NCBI GenBank assembly: GCA_965219955.1
Contig: OZ244799.1
Coordinates: 1,024,001-1,088,000 of the forward strand
Length of the DNA stretch: 64,000 nucleotides
DNA from: a bacterium
Lineage (GTDB): Bacteria > UBA8248
Reading direction: 5' to 3'
Position 1 is the stretch's first letter. Each line of letters opens with the position of its first letter. The notes under the pieces were generated by a model. That model saw nothing but the letters and a program-made list of their open reading frames with translations, was not told the origin of the DNA and did no database searches. This document shows, piece by piece, positions 8,026-48,996 of the stretch. The position numbers were made by a program, and so were the translations under genes.

Positions 8026-8964
8026 GTGCCCAGCTACGATCATGCCAAGGTATGGCTCAACGGAGAGGTGGTTCCGCCAGAGGAAGCCAAGATCAGCGTT
8101 TTCAGTCAGGCGGTCTTGAGAGGCTCGAGCGTGTACGAGGGGATTCGCGCCTATTGGAGCGAGGAGCGGAACAATCTGTTCCTCTGGAAGATGGACCCGC
8201 ACATCCGGCGGCTGTTCGATTCGATGCGCGTGATGCGGATGACGCCGCCCTATACGGCGGAGGAATTCAAGGCCGCCGTTATCGAGTGGATACGGGCGAA
8301 CGAGTTCAGGGAAGACCTTCACTTCCGCCTCAACGTGTATTTCGACGATTCGGGGCCTTTGGACATGAAGGGCTACGCGGCGGACGAGGTGGATACCTGC
8401 GTCTTCATCAGCGGGGGGCCGAACAGCAACCGCAAGCGCCAGGAGGGGGGCGTGAACCTGTGCGTGAGCAGTTGGCGGCGCATCTCGGACGATTCCGTGC
8501 CGCCGCGCGTCAAGGCATCGGCGAATTACCAGAATGGCAGGCTCGCGGGCGTCGAGGCCAGGATAAACGGGTATGACGACGCCCTCCTGCTGAACCGGAA
8601 CGGTACGGTGGCCGAAGGCACGGGCACGTGCATCATGATCGTCCGAGAGGGCAAGCTCATCACGCCGCCGGTGACGGCCTCGATTCTCGAGAGCATCACG
8701 CGCGACAGCGTGCTCGAGATGTTCGGCAGGCACATCGGCCCCGAACCCGTGGAGCGTCCGATGGACCGCACGGAGATCTACGTGGCCGATGAGGCGATGA
8801 TATGCGGCTCGGCCGCCGAGGTCGCGCCCGTGCTCTCGCTCGACCGCATCGAGGTGGGAGACGGAAAGCCGGGCGAAATCACGCGCAGGCTGCAGGAGAT
8901 CTTCTACGCCGCCGCCAGGGGCGTGGACGAGACCTACGAGAAGGACATCCTGCCTGTCTATTGA
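8026..8964 (+). CDS. branched-chain amino acid aminotransferase-like (class IV)
   Basis: YEGIRAY, KASANY, AEGTG, ILESITR; GGGAGG RBS before GTG. Confidence 0.9.
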   Translation: MPSYDHAKVWLNGEVVPPEEAKISVFSQAVLRGSSVYEGIRAYWSEERNNLFLWKMDPHIRRLFDSMRVMRMTPPYTAEEFKAAVIEWIRANEFREDLHFRLNVYFDDSGPLDMKGYAADEVDTCVFISGGPNSNRKRQEGGVNLCVSSWRRISDDSVPPRVKASANYQNGRLAGVEARINGYDDALLLNRNGTVAEGTGTCIMIVREGKLITPPVTASILESITRDSVLEMFGRHIGPEPVERPMDRTEIYVADEAMICGSAAEVAPVLSLDRIEVGDGKPGEITRRLQEIFYAAARGVDETYEKDILPVY

Positions 8965-41233: not shown

Positions 41234-41542
41234 ATGATGATGGTCATTCTACACTATCCCGCCGTCGCGCCCACGCTCGCCGAGGTCCGCGCGGACAAGG
41301 AGCAGGCCGCCGCCTTTTTCGAGAACGAGGTGCCCGGCCTCATCGACAAGACTTGGGGCATGAACGAGGAGACGGGCCGCATGGCGTCGGTCTACCACTT
41401 CGAGGACAAGGCCACCGCCGACGCCTGGTTCAACTCCGAGAAACAGCGCAGCTTCCGCCGGGCGAACAACGCGAGCCTGGAGTACTTCGACGTGGCGGCG
41501 ATCGCGTATACGAAGCCGCTCAGGGAAGAGGCTACTGCGTAG
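41234..41542 (+). CDS. YdhR-like putative monooxygenase (dimeric alpha-beta barrel)
   Basis: PGLIDKTW...VYHFED pattern; GAGGAGG RBS. Confidence 0.7.
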   Translation: MMMVILHYPAVAPTLAEVRADKEQAAAFFENEVPGLIDKTWGMNEETGRMASVYHFEDKATADAWFNSEKQRSFRRANNASLEYFDVAAIAYTKPLREEATA

Positions 41543-41667
41543 GTTCGCAGGGGCGATGGTTTTGTAGGGACAGGCCTCCGTGCCTGTCCGAGGTCGCGAC
41601 ATGTCCCAGCGCGAGAATCGCGCCATGCTAAACGCCACACCCAAGAAATCTAAGACGGAACAATTTG

Positions 41668-42927
41668 ATGATTACACTGATTGAAGCCTTGAATTATCGA
41701 TGCTTGCGGTACGTGTCGAGACCTCTTGAGCCATTTCACGTTCTGGTCGGACCGAACGCCAGCGGCAAGACGACCTTTCTCGACGTCGTCGGATTTCTTC
41801 GGGATCTGGTATCCGGGGGATTGGATGAGGCGTTATCCAGCCGAACCACGAACCCGGAAGAACTCCTCTTTCGGCGTCAGGGCGAGAAGCTGGAACTTGC
41901 AGTTGAAGCCCGCATACCCGATGAGTTGCGCGAGCGAACGGCGAAACCGGAAATGGGCGCGGCGCGCTACGAGGTGGCCATCGGCTTCGATGGAACAAAG
42001 CGCCAGTTCGAGTTCAAGGCCGAGAAATTCTTGCTCAAGAAAACCCGGCTTACAGAGCCTGCCCAGCATTCACTATTCCCCATGCCCGCCGACGCGCCGG
42101 CATCGCTGTTGACAACGAAAGGTAGCCGTAACTACAAAACCGTGGTCAACAAAGTACAGGATGGAAATGACAATTTTTACAGCGAGACCTATCCCCAGGG
42201 GGGAAAGGGTTGGACCCCCTCATTCAAACTTGGGCCGCAAAAATCGGCCCTCGGCAATCTTCCAGCGGATGAAAAATCCCTTCCGGTGGCCTCGTGGTTT
42301 CGAGAATACCTGAAAACCGGCGTACAGCAGTTTGTTCTGAACAGCCTCGCGATCAGACAACCCAGCCCACCGACCCGAGTAACAGGTTTTTTACCCGATG
42401 GATCGAATTTGCCCTGGGTGGTCGCCCGTCTACGGCAAGAGAACAAAGACAGGCATGGTGACTGGATTGCGCACCTTCGGACGGCGCTCGACGATCTCGT
42501 AGATATTACGACCATTGAGCGCCCGGAGGATAAACATTGCTATATGGTCTATGAATATAAGGGTGGTTTGAAAGTGCCTTCGTGGATGGTGTCCGATGGC
42601 ACGCTCCGGCTTACGGCACTGACCTTGCCTGCTTATCTCGACGAGTTGAAAGGGATCTATCTGATCGAAGAACCGGAGAACGGCATCCACCCACGCGCCG
42701 TGGCGACCGTTTATGATTCTCTCTCCTCGGTGTATTCAGCCCAGGTCCTGCTGGCGACTCATTCACCGGTGGTCTTGAGCGAAGCTAAAATTGACGATGT
42801 GCTGTGTTTTGCCAAGGATGGTTCGGGAGCGACGGATATCGTTCTTGGTTCCAAGCATCCCAAACTACAGGAGTGGCACGGAGAAGCCGATCTTGGGACG
42901 TTACTCGCCTCAGGGGTTTTGGGTTGA
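41668..42927 (+). CDS. ABC/AAA_21-type ATPase, resembles MADS defence ATPase Mad3
   Basis: Walker A GPNASGKT, signature SDGT, Walker B/D-loop IEEPENGIHP, H-loop THSP. Confidence 0.8.
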   Translation: MITLIEALNYRCLRYVSRPLEPFHVLVGPNASGKTTFLDVVGFLRDLVSGGLDEALSSRTTNPEELLFRRQGEKLELAVEARIPDELRERTAKPEMGAARYEVAIGFDGTKRQFEFKAEKFLLKKTRLTEPAQHSLFPMPADAPASLLTTKGSRNYKTVVNKVQDGNDNFYSETYPQGGKGWTPSFKLGPQKSALGNLPADEKSLPVASWFREYLKTGVQQFVLNSLAIRQPSPPTRVTGFLPDGSNLPWVVARLRQENKDRHGDWIAHLRTALDDLVDITTIERPEDKHCYMVYEYKGGLKVPSWMVSDGTLRLTALTLPAYLDELKGIYLIEEPENGIHPRAVATVYDSLSSVYSAQVLLATHSPVVLSEAKIDDVLCFAKDGSGATDIVLGSKHPKLQEWHGEADLGTLLASGVLG

Positions 42928-43550
42928 AAGACCTTGTTATTGTCGTCGCCGACAAAAACCTGGAACACGCTCTGAACGGGTTACTTTCCAGGCCGGAAGC
43001 ATTAGGCATTCGAGCCATAGAGGCGGATATCTACCGGCATCCGCAACACGATCCAGGTTGTGCAGTACACGGTGTTGAATTCATTTCCAATTTCGCCAAC
43101 CAGTATCGCCACGGTTTGCTCATGTTCGATCATGAAGGAAGCGGAAAAGAGACGACGACTACGCCTAAAGCGTTGCAAGAAAGCCTTAATGAGAGTTTCG
43201 CCATATCAGCTTGGGGCGAACAAGCCAAGGCCATCGTGCTTGCTCCTGAGCTGGAGGTTTGGATTTGGGGCAATTCTCCGCACGTCGACGAGGTGACGGG
43301 ATGGAGGAACAGGGAACCCGGTCTTCGTCAGTGGTTGGTCGAGCAAGGCTATTTGCAAGAAGGCGAAGTCAAACCCTCGCGACCGAAAGAGGCTTTCGAA
43401 GCAGCCCTGCGGGAAGCGCAAAAACCTCGCAGCGCATCTCTATATCTTCAGATGGCAGAAAGCGTTTCCTTACGTCGATGTACGGATTCGGCCTTCATAG
43501 AGTTGAAAAGCATCCTTAATGATTGGTTTCCCCCCGAAAGTGAAGTGTAG
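42924..43550 (+). CDS. ATPase-associated TOPRIM-like protein, resembles MADS Mad4
   Basis: TTG start overlaps the ATPase stop; DLVIVVAD, HDPG, FDHEG, PELEVW, RPKE. Confidence 0.65.
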   Translation: MKDLVIVVADKNLEHALNGLLSRPEALGIRAIEADIYRHPQHDPGCAVHGVEFISNFANQYRHGLLMFDHEGSGKETTTTPKALQESLNESFAISAWGEQAKAIVLAPELEVWIWGNSPHVDEVTGWRNREPGLRQWLVEQGYLQEGEVKPSRPKEAFEAALREAQKPRSASLYLQMAESVSLRRCTDSAFIELKSILNDWFPPESEV

Positions 43551-43691
43551 CGTATCATTCATCCGTGGCGGCGGTCGCGTATACGAAGCCGCTGCGGGAG
43601 GAGGCGACGGCGTAGTTTTGTAGGGGCGGGGATGTGGTAGGGACAGGCCCCTGTGCCTGCCCGAGGTCGCTGTCCCGATTGATAATGCCTT

Positions 43692-45435
43692 CGTAGGGGC
43701 GGACCCGTGTGTCCGCCCTGTTTGTTGGGAGGCCGTTGCGAAGATGAAATGTTTATTGAGCGTAACCAATGAATGACTGTAGATGTTGCATACCGCTAAA
43801 ATAGGGGCAAATTAAAAAAAGTCATTCGAATCAAACTGTCTCGATTCGATTGGAAGAATAATCTTGTTCCTGTCTTTACCCTCTTCTTTGATCTGTTCTT
43901 CTCTGTGCATTGCCAAAGACAAGTAAACTAGCGCTTCCCTCGCTATTCGGAGCATTCGTAAAGTATTATCAATAAAAGCATCAAGGGGAACAAAACCATG
44001 CAACTCTGTCCCCGACATAGCTTGGCTGTAGAATTGGAGGTTCAGAAACCTATGCTCCGCACGATTTCGGAGATCGGATAACTGTGTGGCGTCGGGTTCT
44101 GCCACGTCGTTGAATTCAATTTCAAACAAATCCTTGGAAAGGAAATAGAGCCCACGAAGAAGCCAGTTCTGGTTTCCTTGAAAGATCTGCCTGAGTTGAT
44201 AACTTGTTGTACCATGTGGCTTCTCGCACCATATGTTTCTAAAGTTGACTCCTTTAGGATTGAGTCCAATAGAATAATAGTCGTTCAAGAACAAGGCTAT
44301 CTTGTCAAGAATTGCGTATGCTGCCCGGAAAGATGATTTCAATTCCTCGGTATGGTGGCCATATATATTTCCATCCGCCAAATCATACAAACTAATGTCA
44401 CGATTCACGAAGCGGTCATTGGTTTGATTTATTGCGCTGAAATAGCGATATCGAGAGCTTACAAATTCCTGCTTTAGAATGTTGTAATATTCTACAAAGC
44501 GTGGGGCTTCATCAATTTGGTATTTGTGATTTGGAAGATGAAGAATATCTCTTGCGGCTACAGAAAGTTTAAGTACATCATTTAATGGATTCAAAAACAG
44601 TTTCTCATCAAGGCACCAGCGGCGGAAATGTCGCTCTTTCTCACTATTGCCCAGCGACCATTGGTTCAAATCAAAATTGTCATCAAACTTGCAGTCTTTT
44701 AGGAAATTATCAATTTCTTTCCTGCTGTCTTGGAAGAGTGGCTTGAAATTTGAATGTTCAAATTCGTCCCATACCGCTTTTTGAGAGAGGGCGGCATCAT
44801 AACCAGAGCGAGCGGCGCCCAGCATGATTGGTTTATGGCCGGGATCATAAAGGGCCCCAGCATAATGGGAAATGGAACGGGCTTGATTACCGAGTGCCAT
44901 TGCGAAATTAGGATTTTGCTTTAAAACCGTATTCCATTGCTCGATAGCTGCGATTGGTCGTCCAAGATTATTAAGCCTATTACCGAGATTCGTGCGTATT
45001 CTGTACTGAAAGATGGCATCCACCTTGCCAAAAGCGGATTCTTTGATTGCTTGTCTAAGCGCGAGAATTTCAGCGATATTCTCAGGCTGATTCCAACCCC
45101 AAGCATAATCTGTGCCAGTCGAGCGAACAGCAAATATGCCAGCGTATGAATTAGCTTCGTAATAGCGTAGTATTACTCGCTGCTCGTCTGTGGCGACTTC
45201 TAATTTGTCTCGGCATTCTTGAGCTAATACCGCCAATGTTTTTTCGTCTTTGGCATCACATGCTGCATCAATTTGCTTACCAAGATTGAACGGGTCATCC
45301 ATTCGATTAACTCTGAAAACGGGTGGTCAAAAAGGCGGGCGAAAACACATGGGATGGTATAACGACGGCGAGAGATTTCGTCAAACATATTGTGTGCGTA
45401 AGTCGATTGGGCGGACACACGGGTCCGCCCCTACG
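43692..45435. mobile_element. perfect inverted 27-bp GTAG-REP pair enclosing the HEPN gene
   Basis: CGTAGGGGCGGACCCGTGTGTCCGCCC at 43692-43718; exact reverse complement at 45409-45435. Confidence 0.7.
43812..45302 (-). CDS. TPR plus LA2681-family HEPN domain protein
   Basis: TPR-like NLGNRL...PNFAMALGN, LFLNPLND, LDKIA, HEPN motif RNRAEH (Rx4H); strongly AT-rich. Confidence 0.82.
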   Translation of the reverse strand: MDDPFNLGKQIDAACDAKDEKTLAVLAQECRDKLEVATDEQRVILRYYEANSYAGIFAVRSTGTDYAWGWNQPENIAEILALRQAIKESAFGKVDAIFQYRIRTNLGNRLNNLGRPIAAIEQWNTVLKQNPNFAMALGNQARSISHYAGALYDPGHKPIMLGAARSGYDAALSQKAVWDEFEHSNFKPLFQDSRKEIDNFLKDCKFDDNFDLNQWSLGNSEKERHFRRWCLDEKLFLNPLNDVLKLSVAARDILHLPNHKYQIDEAPRFVEYYNILKQEFVSSRYRYFSAINQTNDRFVNRDISLYDLADGNIYGHHTEELKSSFRAAYAILDKIALFLNDYYSIGLNPKGVNFRNIWCEKPHGTTSYQLRQIFQGNQNWLLRGLYFLSKDLFEIEFNDVAEPDATQLSDLRNRAEHRFLNLQFYSQAMSGTELHGFVPLDAFIDNTLRMLRIAREALVYLSLAMHREEQIKEEGKDRNKIILPIESRQFDSNDFF

Positions 45436-45472
45436 GAAGCACTGCGATAGGGGGTTCACTCCCCCCTTGAGA

Positions 45473-45682: not shown

Positions 45683-45973
45683 TTACGCCCGTTTCGAGGC
45701 CTTCGTGGCGTGTTCGCGGAGCACGCGGTTCATCTCGGTCTGGTATCCCCGACCGTTTGGGGCGTTCGACCGGAACCAGGCCACCACGTCGGCGTCGAGC
45801 CTGAGTGTGATCTGCCGCTTCACGGGCCGGTAGAGGAGGCCGCGCCTCGCTTCCGACCAATCCAGAATTTCAGGAATGTCGCTCGTATCGATCGCCTCAT
45901 CAGAAAGGCCCGCGAGCGCCTCGATTTCCGCCTTCTGCTTCCCTGTGAGTTTTTTAGAAATCGCCTTGCTCAT
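45683..45973 (-). CDS. brnA: BrnA family antitoxin
   Basis: IDTSDIPE, RPVKRQITLRLDADVVAWF, GYQT..N..L. Confidence 0.9.
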   Translation of the reverse strand: MSKAISKKLTGKQKAEIEALAGLSDEAIDTSDIPEILDWSEARRGLLYRPVKRQITLRLDADVVAWFRSNAPNGRGYQTEMNRVLREHATKASKRA

Positions 45974-46277
45974 AAGCTCTCCTCTCTCGCGCCGTGGCTT
46001 TTCTGGCGCTGATGATGCGGCCCGTCTCGGCGCCGGTTTCGCCCTGCGCTTGAGGCCATGTGTGCGCCACGATGACGACCACGCCCCCGATCATCCCGAT
46101 GGTGTGCCACCGCTCCTCGTTCGGGTTCGGGCGGTGGGCCATGAGCGGATCGTCGAACACAAGCCTTGCCGTCTCGAAGCCGAGGCCATGCTTGCGCCTG
46201 TTCGCGCGATTCTTGTCGTCATCCCATTCCCAGCGCAACGAACCGGCTCTTTTGTCGTTATGATATTGTAGTGACAT
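45954..46277 (-). CDS. brnT: BrnT family ribonuclease toxin
   Basis: EWDDDK...N..KHG..F, E.R...IG, RIISARKA; true start may be TTG at 46238. Confidence 0.9.
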   Translation of the reverse strand: MSLQYHNDKRAGSLRWEWDDDKNRANRRKHGLGFETARLVFDDPLMAHRPNPNEERWHTIGMIGGVVVIVAHTWPQAQGETGAETGRIISARKATARERRAYEQGDF

Positions 46278-47832: not shown

Positions 47833-48996
47833 ATGAAAATTTTATGGAAGAATGCAATGCTTGCCCTCGGGTCAAAGAGGTGTGCCGCGGCCCTGCCATT
47901 GCTCCTCGCTTTGCTGCTCTCCGCACTTACCGCCACTCCCGGGTGGGCGGCGGTGCGCCAGACACTGAGCGGCCCGGTTTCTGTCGAGCAGGTGGCTGGG
48001 GACCTCGATACCCCCTGGGGGATTGCGTTCCTGCCGGGCGGGGCGTTTCTCGTCACCGAGCGTGGCGGCTCGCTTTTTCATTTTGACTCTGTGCGTCGCA
48101 GGATTAAAGTATCAGGCGTCCCGCAAGTCTACGCTTGGGGGCAGGGCGGGCTGATGGACGTCGCCGCCGCGCGGGATTTCCCCGAAACGCGCGAGATTTT
48201 CCTCACCTACTCGAAACCCCGCCGAGGCGGCGGAGGCACGGCACTGGCCGTCGCCGCCCTTTCTGCCGACAACCGGAAGCTCGAGAACCTGCGCGTCATC
48301 TTCGAGATGGCGTCGCCTTCCTCCGGAGGCCGGCATTTCGGCTCGCGGGTCATCGAGGCGCCCGATGGCACGCTCTTTCTCACCCTGGGCGAGCGGGGCG
48401 ACCCCGACAAGTCGCAGGACCTCTCGCTCCACCACGGCAAGATAATCCGCATCCGGCGCGACGGGAGCGTTCCGCCTGACAACCCGTTCGTCGGGCGGGC
48501 GGGGACGCGTCCTGAAATCTGGTCGTGGGGACACAGGAACCCGCAGGGCGCCGCGCTCGATGCGGCGGGCGCGCTCTGGGCCGTCGAGCACGGCGCGCGG
48601 GGCGGGGACGAGATAAACCGGGTGAGGCGAGGGCGCAACTACGGGTGGCCCGTCATCGCCTACGGGCGGCACTACTGGGGCGGGAAGATAGGCGAGGGCA
48701 CTGCGAAAGAGGGCATGGAGCAGCCCGATTTCTACTGGGACCCCTCCATCGCGCCCTGCGGGATGGCGATCTATTCAGGAAAGCTGTGGCCGGCCTGGCG
48801 CGGGCATTTTTTCGTCTCCTCGCTGAAATACGACCATATCTCAAGGCTGGACCCCAAAGGCGGTCTCAGGGAAGTGGAGCGACTGGCTTTCCCCGAGACG
48901 GGCCGCGTGCGCGACGTCCAGGAAGCGCCCGACGGCTCAATTTGGTTCCTGTCCGAGGAGAGGGAGGCGGTCTACAGGATCAGGCCCCTTCGGTAG
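47833..48996 (+). CDS. PQQ-dependent sugar dehydrogenase (YliI/GSDH family)
   Basis: PWGIAFLP, LVTERGG, GQGGLMD, HFGSR, GHRNPQG, GGDEIN, NYGWP. Confidence 0.93.
   Translation: MKILWKNAMLALGSKRCAAALPLLLALLLSALTATPGWAAVRQTLSGPVSVEQVAGDLDTPWGIAFLPGGAFLVTERGGSLFHFDSVRRRIKVSGVPQVYAWGQGGLMDVAAARDFPETREIFLTYSKPRRGGGGTALAVAALSADNRKLENLRVIFEMASPSSGGRHFGSRVIEAPDGTLFLTLGERGDPDKSQDLSLHHGKIIRIRRDGSVPPDNPFVGRAGTRPEIWSWGHRNPQGAALDAAGALWAVEHGARGGDEINRVRRGRNYGWPVIAYGRHYWGGKIGEGTAKEGMEQPDFYWDPSIAPCGMAIYSGKLWPAWRGHFFVSSLKYDHISRLDPKGGLREVERLAFPETGRVRDVQEAPDGSIWFLSEEREAVYRIRPLR

Follow-up and report, generated by a model that had tools for sequence, protein, structure and literature searches.

Integrative elements that restore the 3' end of the gene they enter, and their decayed, cis-mobilisable remnants, are recognised by a direct repeat (attL/attR) that carries the gene's last codons and surrounds the cargo. 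We analysed a locus that resembles them in having such a repeat around foreign-looking cargo. It lies in a window of 64,000 nt (the whole stretch of DNA that was analysed, from contig OZ244799.1 of a UBA8248 bacterium, genome G000), where the last codons of a small ydhR-like gene recur as an orphan fragment behind a two-gene defence-like cassette, mad3-mad4. It differs from those elements in having no integrase, no fixed crossover site, the same cargo at the same site without a repeat in other lineages, and no carrier that we could find. Coordinates are window positions unless marked as genome positions.

Partial gene duplications are also produced with no dedicated recombinase. The available text of PMC3240628 describes laboratory events, selected in E. 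coli conjugation, in which incoming DNA has one homologous end and one non-homologous joint. These include homology-facilitated illegitimate recombination (HFIR) and insertion-duplication, in which re-circularised DNA enters by a single crossover and leaves target duplications of 109–950 bp. The repeat here measures 107 bp, and compared with the events in that text the scar is natural, is fixed and joins two defence alleles. HFIR has also been invoked for orphan 3' ends, in the portion of PMC5361080 that covers type VI secretion system effector–immunity arrays of V. cholerae and Rhs genes. There, as at our locus, an incoming allele is anchored in a conserved gene, an orphan 3' end is left, older content is pushed downstream, and the copies come from different strains rather than from duplication in place. 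The anchor in those arrays is the toxin gene itself. At our locus a small enzyme gene plays that part, with anti-phage-like cargo, and orphan 5' ends occur as well. Finally, the accessible part of PMC5635113 reports many hotspots without an integrase, whose turnover comes from recombination in the genes beside them. Our locus shares with them a slot between conserved genes, high turnover, the lack of an integrase and mosaic flanks. Double homologous recombination replaces alleles scarlessly at such hotspots, whereas the orphan described here would record the rarer addition of an allele.

We consider it probable (about 0.7) that the repeat is a real, fixed recombination scar of this known kind, left by one-sided stacking of two alleles, and not the mark of a new self-inserting element. 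Our literature search, which left most subscription journals outside its coverage, returned no paper on genome-wide gene-end scars around defence cargo and nothing on integrase-free, gene-end-duplicating defence islets.

The duplicated gene end and its joint

The ydhR-like product exceeds the cut-off of Pfam PF08803 (34.8 bits against 27.1; E 1.6e-8), and the gene was detected in 21 of 22 same-genus relatives. Its last 52 nt (41491–41542) differ from the orphan at 43564–43615 by six mismatches, and a TAG stop ends both. One codon pair changes the residue (ATC in the gene, GTC in the orphan; I/V), while the other five, CTC/CTG, AGG/CGG, GAA/GAG, GCT/GCG and ACT/ACG, are synonymous. When the genome (4.28 Mb, one contig, 94% complete) was searched, the second copy scored E = 4.6e-13 and the next match E = 0.033. 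The recurrence given in a preliminary description of this locus is thus confirmed and is unique in the genome. So is its extension beyond the gene: ungapped homology runs past the ydhR stop and through the first GTAG-tagged hairpin of a repetitive extragenic palindromic (REP) sequence, to 41597 and 43670, giving 107 nt at 84% identity. The two copies are spaced 2,073 nt apart, and the longest exact run within the repeat is 19 nt.

Just 13 nt separate the mad4 stop from the orphan tail, and this flank, which ends at the non-homologous joint 43563/43564, is without homology to the ydhR sequence upstream of 41491. Compared with the DNA behind mad4 in relative G014 it scored 23, below a shuffle maximum of 37.5, and it was not found in any relative compared. 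The joint itself was spanned by contigs from three sequencing runs: X1 (41565–43666, 11 other letters), X2 (43300–43666, one other letter) and X17 (41568–44621, no other letters). X1 and X2 represent two samples other than that of X17, and X17 contigs are continuous through both repeat copies. Out of 16 runs with a small or unlabelled share, the comparison used X1, X2 and a third, X3. No 2,073-nt skip or circle joint appeared among the 15 joints listed of 77, in contigs, which drop rare variants.

Synonymous changes make up a share of 0.26 of possible changes, and five of six would arise by neutral decay with P = 0.006. From this pattern we conclude that both tail copies diverged as working genes; in-place neutral decay would rarely produce it. 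Their distance is typical of alleles in the genus. In an alignment of 18 functional ydhR tails, the median pairwise distance was 7 nt (range 1–14), which makes six differences ordinary. Each codon of the tail attached to ydhR is also present in functional tails of relatives: AGG (10 of 18) and GAA (12 of 18) are the majority codons, GCT (1 of 18) and ACT (2 of 18) are rare, and CTC is common to the sister genomes G011 and G016. The orphan's GTC is the sole codon absent from all 18. The tail that the preliminary description took for a "recoded" 3' end supplied by an element is therefore an ordinary genus allele, and that claim is not supported. The same description had called the orphan's G/C-ending codons typical of this genome. 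That holds as a count, since all five synonymous third positions are G or C in the orphan and two of five in the gene copy. It does not hold as a guide to origin: CTC and CTG are used about equally (44,263 and 43,397 times), so that site is uninformative, and with AGG and GAA in the majority among relatives we rejected third-position G/C as a marker of the original copy.

The start motif of the first REP (REP1) has 348 copies in the genome, and hairpin folding was computed for the REP1 copies and for the second REP (REP2). G000 carries hundreds of GTAG-tagged hairpins despite having no Y1 transposase match. In a promoter scan, ydhR had a single weak upstream site and mad3 had none. Among 15 records with the same ydhR tail, four are labelled Nitrospinota/Nitrospinaceae, one Poribacteria and ten simply "bacterium".

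Two allele families in one slot

The interval between ydhR and a glucose/sorbosone dehydrogenase (GSDH) gene was compared at up to 18 kb in 20 relatives; G015, with a partial ydhR match, was left out. In six of the 20 (G002, G004, G011, G012, G014 and G017), mad3-mad4 lies directly behind ydhR with no tail copy. The same is true of G021 and of loci from metagenomes: L062, and L063/L064, which seem to belong to one organism. MAD4 was found in 7 of 22 relatives. We found no second ydhR tail downstream in the 20 relatives, L062, L064 or G021 (the best score was 42, against 80 for the positive control), over the 2.3–12 kb of downstream DNA available. The claim that a discrete 2.1-kb unit integrated with an att duplication is not supported by these loci. 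In five further relatives (G003, G005, G013, G018 and G020), the tail runs straight into the REP pair that follows the orphan in G000, aligned to 43730–43737. These are the empty-type alleles that the preliminary description had suggested looking for. The slot behind the REP pair holds either nothing or defence-like genes for DUF3644, AbiJ_NTD4, Schlafen/AlbA or DUF2806 proteins.

Two allele families occupy this slot. Allele M runs ydhR, REP1, mad3, mad4, GSDH; the direct example is G014, with 81 nt between mad4 and GSDH. Allele E runs ydhR, REP1, REP2, variable defence cargo, inverted REP2, BrnTA, GSDH, as in G020 and G016. G000 follows M to 13 nt past mad4, then E from 52 nt before the ydhR stop, with a HEPN gene as the second allele's cargo. 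It carries both alleles in tandem where relatives have one. This is the layout expected of an HFIR-type event, with a left part that matches M alleles, a right part that matches E alleles and the joint between them.

Three relatives bear a different scar. In G011, G012 and G002, mad4 is followed by a decayed copy of the G014 spacer and of the GSDH 5' end, then by E-type content and then by an intact GSDH gene. The orphan GSDH heads scored 154, 111 and 62 against shuffle maxima of 38, 45 and 31.5, respectively, and no such head was seen in six other relatives tested. They lie at about 8168–8400 of locus L031 (G011) and at the same place in L036 (G012) and L034 (G002). These heads mark the same M and E stacking, with the scar at the other anchor. 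Since three relatives stack through an orphan GSDH head instead of a ydhR tail, the joint is not site-specific. Judging from these alignments, the ydhR–GSDH interval behaves as a recombination hotspot and variable defence slot in this sponge-bacterial genus. In L036, 5.2–8.3 kb behind ydhR, the same hotspot also contains a low-GC (34–45%) block of several genes.

One-sided stacking would need one homologous crossover and one non-homologous joint, with reshuffling by ordinary recombination afterwards. A piece of a congener's DNA would have integrated through a single host-RecA crossover in shared sequence plus a non-homologous joint, either as linear DNA by HFIR or after closing into a circle that entered by a single crossover. 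The joint would have landed inside ydhR, leaving one whole gene and a leftover tail. Such a tail would stem from another working allele, which would explain why its differences are synonymous. No integrase or att site would be required. Once formed, the joint could spread by ordinary two-crossover recombination, and the orphan with its REP could serve as a short left homology arm for exchanging downstream cargo while mad3-mad4 stays in place. The outcome would be two defence alleles in a cell where relatives have one. Capture by homology-assisted recombination, one of the routes offered in the preliminary description, is accordingly retained as the best mechanism.

As to which side came in, the tail distances point both ways: G016, G017 and G013 (three differences each) and G011 (four) have tails nearer to the gene copy than to the orphan, and L062 (two differences) and G012 (three) have tails nearer to the orphan. 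We lean slightly towards the tail–REP–HEPN side, or a ready-made joint, as the incoming DNA; the polarity first proposed, with mad3-mad4 as the incoming allele, is possible at somewhat under even odds.

Orphan gene ends elsewhere and competing explanations

We scanned the genome for further orphan gene ends on the same strand as their gene and within 30 kb of it, with high-copy repeats masked and genes taken from our own hexamer model rather than a standard predictor. The expected arrangement was found for 12 tails downstream and 6 heads upstream, and the reverse arrangement for 2 tails upstream and 2 heads downstream; 3 ends were on the opposite strand. This polarity (18 versus 4) has a raw P of 0.004. 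Genes 3263 and 3266 were dropped from the 18 oriented rows as a paralog array, genes 3624, 3246 and 3249 are ambiguous rows, and gene 2324 (scored "mid", its tail having an internal deletion) was added. About 14 integrase-free orphan gene ends remained after filtering (P = 0.03 against 4). Their cargo includes AAA_21 with DUF4276, GmrSD, HicB-family, AbiEi, RAMA, HTH and aspartyl-protease genes, and also transporters and binding proteins. Because most of the other orphans are decayed and carry non-synonymous changes, the ydhR orphan is probably young or refreshed.

Four orphan-end loci were followed into the 22 relatives. The locus near genome position 1,588,180 is precisely empty in 11 of 22, holds ATPase cargo in four genomes and alpha/beta-hydrolase cargo in three, and each of these two cargoes comes with a tail copy of the same gene. 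The orphan matches its own gene at 98% in G008, 93% in G017 and 91% in G018, compared with 74–91% between genomes; in G000, G002 and G012 it does so at only 79–83%. Its tail repeat in G000 surrounds an AAA_21 and DUF4276 pair at genome 1,588,874–1,591,129 (L079, 1875–1973 and 4029–4130). At a metallophosphoesterase gene, a perfect 60-nt repeat (ribosome-binding site plus the first 43 nt) surrounds a HicB-family pair at genome 4,262,422–4,263,189 (L086, 1923–1982 and 2631–2690). This head-repeat locus is filled in G000, G016, G012 and G002, precisely empty in 7 of 22 relatives and occupied by other spacers without the repeat in 4 of 15 examined; in G002, two alleles are stacked through the 60-nt orphan head. 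A head orphan at genome 664,687 was present in 5 of 13 relatives examined. The comparison at the GmrSD locus consisted mostly of repeat matches, and we counted only one precise empty allele there, in G022; the cargo was not listed in any relative.

Several other gene-end repeats were noted along the way. In L136 (G005), the orphan 3' tail of an M17 aminopeptidase gene stands by a HicB-family gene, with two copies of a 76-nt repeat 1,408 nt apart; the listings for that site in G002 and G021 show no such repeat. A 448-aa gene has an orphan tail that lacks about 200 nt internally and lies behind ParA-like cargo of 45% GC (L081 4204–4340; genome 2,450,204–2,450,340). L082 (genome 2,509,544–2,517,178) contains two interleaved tail duplications of convergent genes, one SNase-like (77 nt at 99%) and one transketolase/PDH-E1-like (102 nt at 91%); the duplications enclose RAMA and unknown genes.

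A site-specific origin, in which a remnant element or one mobilised in trans targeted the ydhR 3' end and left attL and attR, would account for the resemblance to att duplications at gene 3' ends. Direct repeats do flank the cargo, 20 tyrosine-recombinase matches in the genome exceed the Pfam cut-off, and the locus near 1,588,180 has two cargoes that each bring a tail copy of one gene. We nevertheless find this origin unlikely. As the preliminary description had stated, there is no integrase in the unit: PF00589 has no match there or anywhere in the window, the nearest matches being at genome 992,490 and 1,379,260. No genome-wide search for serine recombinases was made; the unit's two genes are those for MAD3 and MAD4. 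Nine other lineages have the same cargo at this position with no repeat, the joints vary between ydhR tail and GSDH head, and gene 5' ends and about 14 unrelated genes have orphans too. No viral contig matched a degenerate ydhR tail pattern in an exact-match scan, which misses divergent carriers, and the contigs described above contain neither a skip nor a circle among the joints listed and run unbroken through both copies. The variable joints and the lack of a viral contig with the tail speak equally against integrase mobilisation in trans, as first suggested. In REP-directed capture, single-stranded cargo would be inserted with the help of a RAYT/TnpA-REP HUH nuclease that nicks close to GTAG hairpins. 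This explanation has in its favour the hairpin in both repeat copies, the weak Y1 transposase matches in 11 of 22 relatives (some with stops), and an inverted REP2 pair around cargo. That pair (33 nt; 43686–43718 and 45409–45441) brackets the HEPN gene in G000 and encloses different cargo in G016, G020 and G008. It does not bracket the mad3-mad4 unit, however, and the new joint is inside coding sequence, at a distance of 73 nt upstream of the hairpin. Together with the absence of any Y1_Tnp match in the 94% complete G000 genome and of a high-copy repeat directly beside the duplicated segment at most other orphan loci, this makes REP-directed capture distinctly improbable.

The repeat could instead be old, if mad3-mad4 had inserted with a long target duplication whose second copy was lost in most lineages and kept and refreshed in G000. 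A contig of the sponge metagenome run X3 suggests a second lineage with the same joint, orphans that share a cargo joint near 1,588,180 track their own genes closely enough to show that refreshing happens, and precise empty alleles exist at three other loci. Such a history is improbable all the same: nine lineages would each have had to lose the copy independently, mad4 originally adjoined GSDH directly to judge from G014 and the GSDH-head scars, and the orphan retains a perfect reading frame though mad3-mad4 has diverged by 11–19% across the genus. The copies also differ as alleles of two strains would, which is what an assembly chimera of two strains would produce. A chimera is refuted by two further samples, since the joint is spanned in contigs from X1 and X2 as well as X17; and the remnant of a full tandem paralog is at odds with the finding that the genome repeats nothing else of ydhR and that no relative has a tandem copy. 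Both possibilities, which the preliminary description had named as potentially fatal to its account, are extremely unlikely.

One-sided stacking remains the reading we prefer, and several points weigh against it. No integration event was caught in the act. Laboratory HFIR usually deletes recipient DNA and is rare, according to the available text of PMC3240628. ComEC and DprA are present in the genome, but they also occur in 10 and 11 of 14 control genomes and are no proof of competence. The tail distances give a mixed signal on polarity. At the GmrSD and HicAB loci, no relative was found with the same cargo beside the same gene minus the duplication, and the scars there may date from first capture instead of from stacking of congeneric alleles. 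Finally, the X3 contig aligns over 41658–43628 with 214 other letters (about 89% identity), and the HEPN gene is not covered in X3. It appears to join mad3-mad4 to the tail without HEPN, and the joint may therefore be older than the species, in which case a clean orphan needs an extra refresh step. If the X3 joint holds, it represents a second lineage with other or no downstream cargo and favours spread and refresh by ordinary recombination.

A stronger version, in which duplicated gene ends act as working recombinase-free landing pads where host recombination pops defence cassettes in and out and stacks alleles, seems to us rather doubtful. It would fit the 91–98% identity of orphan to own gene in three genomes that share a cargo joint, the precise empty alleles at two loci (in 11 of 22 relatives at one and in 7 of 22 at the other), the stacking in G002 and the seemingly identical joint of X3 without HEPN. 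The short exact run in the ydhR repeat (19 nt) and the lack of a circle among the joints listed count against it. If true, it would provide a host-recombination-only route to defence arrays at many ordinary genes, with each orphan matched to its own gene.

Cargo and neighbouring genes

Features of the slot are collected in Table 1.

Table 1. Features between the ydhR-like gene and the GSDH gene in G000 (window positions)
Feature	Positions	Strand	Family match or remark
Intact small ydhR-like gene (102 aa), anchoring the variable slot on the left	41234..41542	+	Pfam PF08803
Direct repeat copy 1, 107 nt: last 52 nt of ydhR, spacer and GTAG hairpin REP1 (from 41564)	41491..41597	+	
mad3, MAD3-family AAA ATPase	41671..42927	+	NCBIfam NF047739; Pfam AAA_21
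mad4, MAD4-family Toprim-like nuclease partner	42924..43550	+	NCBIfam NF047734
13-nt flank ending at the non-homologous joint	43551..43563	+	
Orphan ydhR 3' tail, 16 codons and stop; start of second allele	43564..43615	+	
REP1 (from 43637) and REP2 (from 43693), hairpin folds	43616..43730	+	Like post-ydhR sequence in relatives without mad3-mad4
LA2681-like HEPN gene, 496 aa, 43% GC; cargo of second allele	43812..45302	-	Pfam PF18733, E 2.5e-59
BrnT-BrnA toxin-antitoxin pair; variable part of the slot	45683..46277	-	Pfam PF04365, PF14384
GSDH gene; right anchor	47833..48996	+	Pfam PF07995, E 7.6e-122

The defence-like character first ascribed to the cargo was borne out. MAD3 scored 503.8 bits against NF047739 (cut-off 420) and MAD4 217.6 bits against NF047734 (cut-off 160), and the two genes overlap as an operon. 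In the available text of PMC13662399, MAD3 and MAD4 form a 2:2 ATPase–Toprim nuclease. The lysine of the MAD3 Walker A motif is at position 34, matching the P. aeruginosa protein in that text. The predicted acidic pocket of our MAD4 (D10, D43, D69, E71, E109 and E111, with K155) resembles in its spacing the published residues (D12, D55, D81, E83, E119, E121 and K164), the match being by spacing and not by alignment. A search of solved structures (PDB) with MAD4 gave no match, and PADLOC left MAD4 unmatched and gave MAD3 only generic ATPase matches (HEC-01A, mad3, AriA). The pair thus resembles its MADS counterparts in curated scores, operon overlap, Walker A lysine and acidic pocket, and differs in that only two of the eight MADS genes are at this locus. 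As far as the portion seen of the MADS preprint goes (bioRxiv 10.1101/2023.03.30.534895), MAD6–8 are mandatory and MAD3–4 accessory. Our search of the genome covered the MAD1, MAD2, MAD5 and MAD7 models, with MAD6 and MAD8 left out. MAD1, MAD5 and MAD7 had no match, the MAD7 search being weak and silent in every control genome, and MAD2 reached at most 31 bits of 720. The genes that flank mad3-mad4 are ydhR and HEPN, not other mad genes. By sequence criteria, the cargo is best described as a stand-alone MAD3-MAD4 ATPase–nuclease pair. A further possibility, which we link to the rather doubtful landing-pad version, is that it is a complete two-gene defence system outside MADS.

This pair is an old resident under purifying selection, mosaic in sequence, and no recent foreigner. 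Compared with G011, mad3 differs at 91 synonymous and 29 non-synonymous codons. Over 42471–43370, identity to G011, the core sister, is 92–96%; elsewhere the sequence is mosaic with synonymous changes dominant. The pair groups with G011 and G002, which are also close in core trees. In run X1, about nine differences are clustered at 42198–42282 inside mad3 on a contig that is otherwise near-identical, a cluster that probably marks a recent recombination tract and ongoing exchange. MAD3-MAD4 without other MADS genes is conserved at this single site in at least ten lineages, where purifying selection acts on it; it is a candidate stand-alone defence module.

Further along the slot, the HEPN gene was not found in the 22 same-genus relatives, and the presence of BrnTA varies among them.

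If one-sided stacking is the right explanation, this locus documents cleanly, in nature, how defence hotspots grow without an integrase: alleles would be swapped by ordinary recombination and added by a rare one-sided event, leaving a gene end as the receipt. It is uncommon for related genomes to display both parent alleles, the stacked product and another way of stacking together, as they do here. Synonymous differences in a duplicated gene end do not by themselves make it an att site or a recoded replacement. The stand-alone MAD3-MAD4 pair would also offer a chance to see whether this module defends its host without the rest of MADS.

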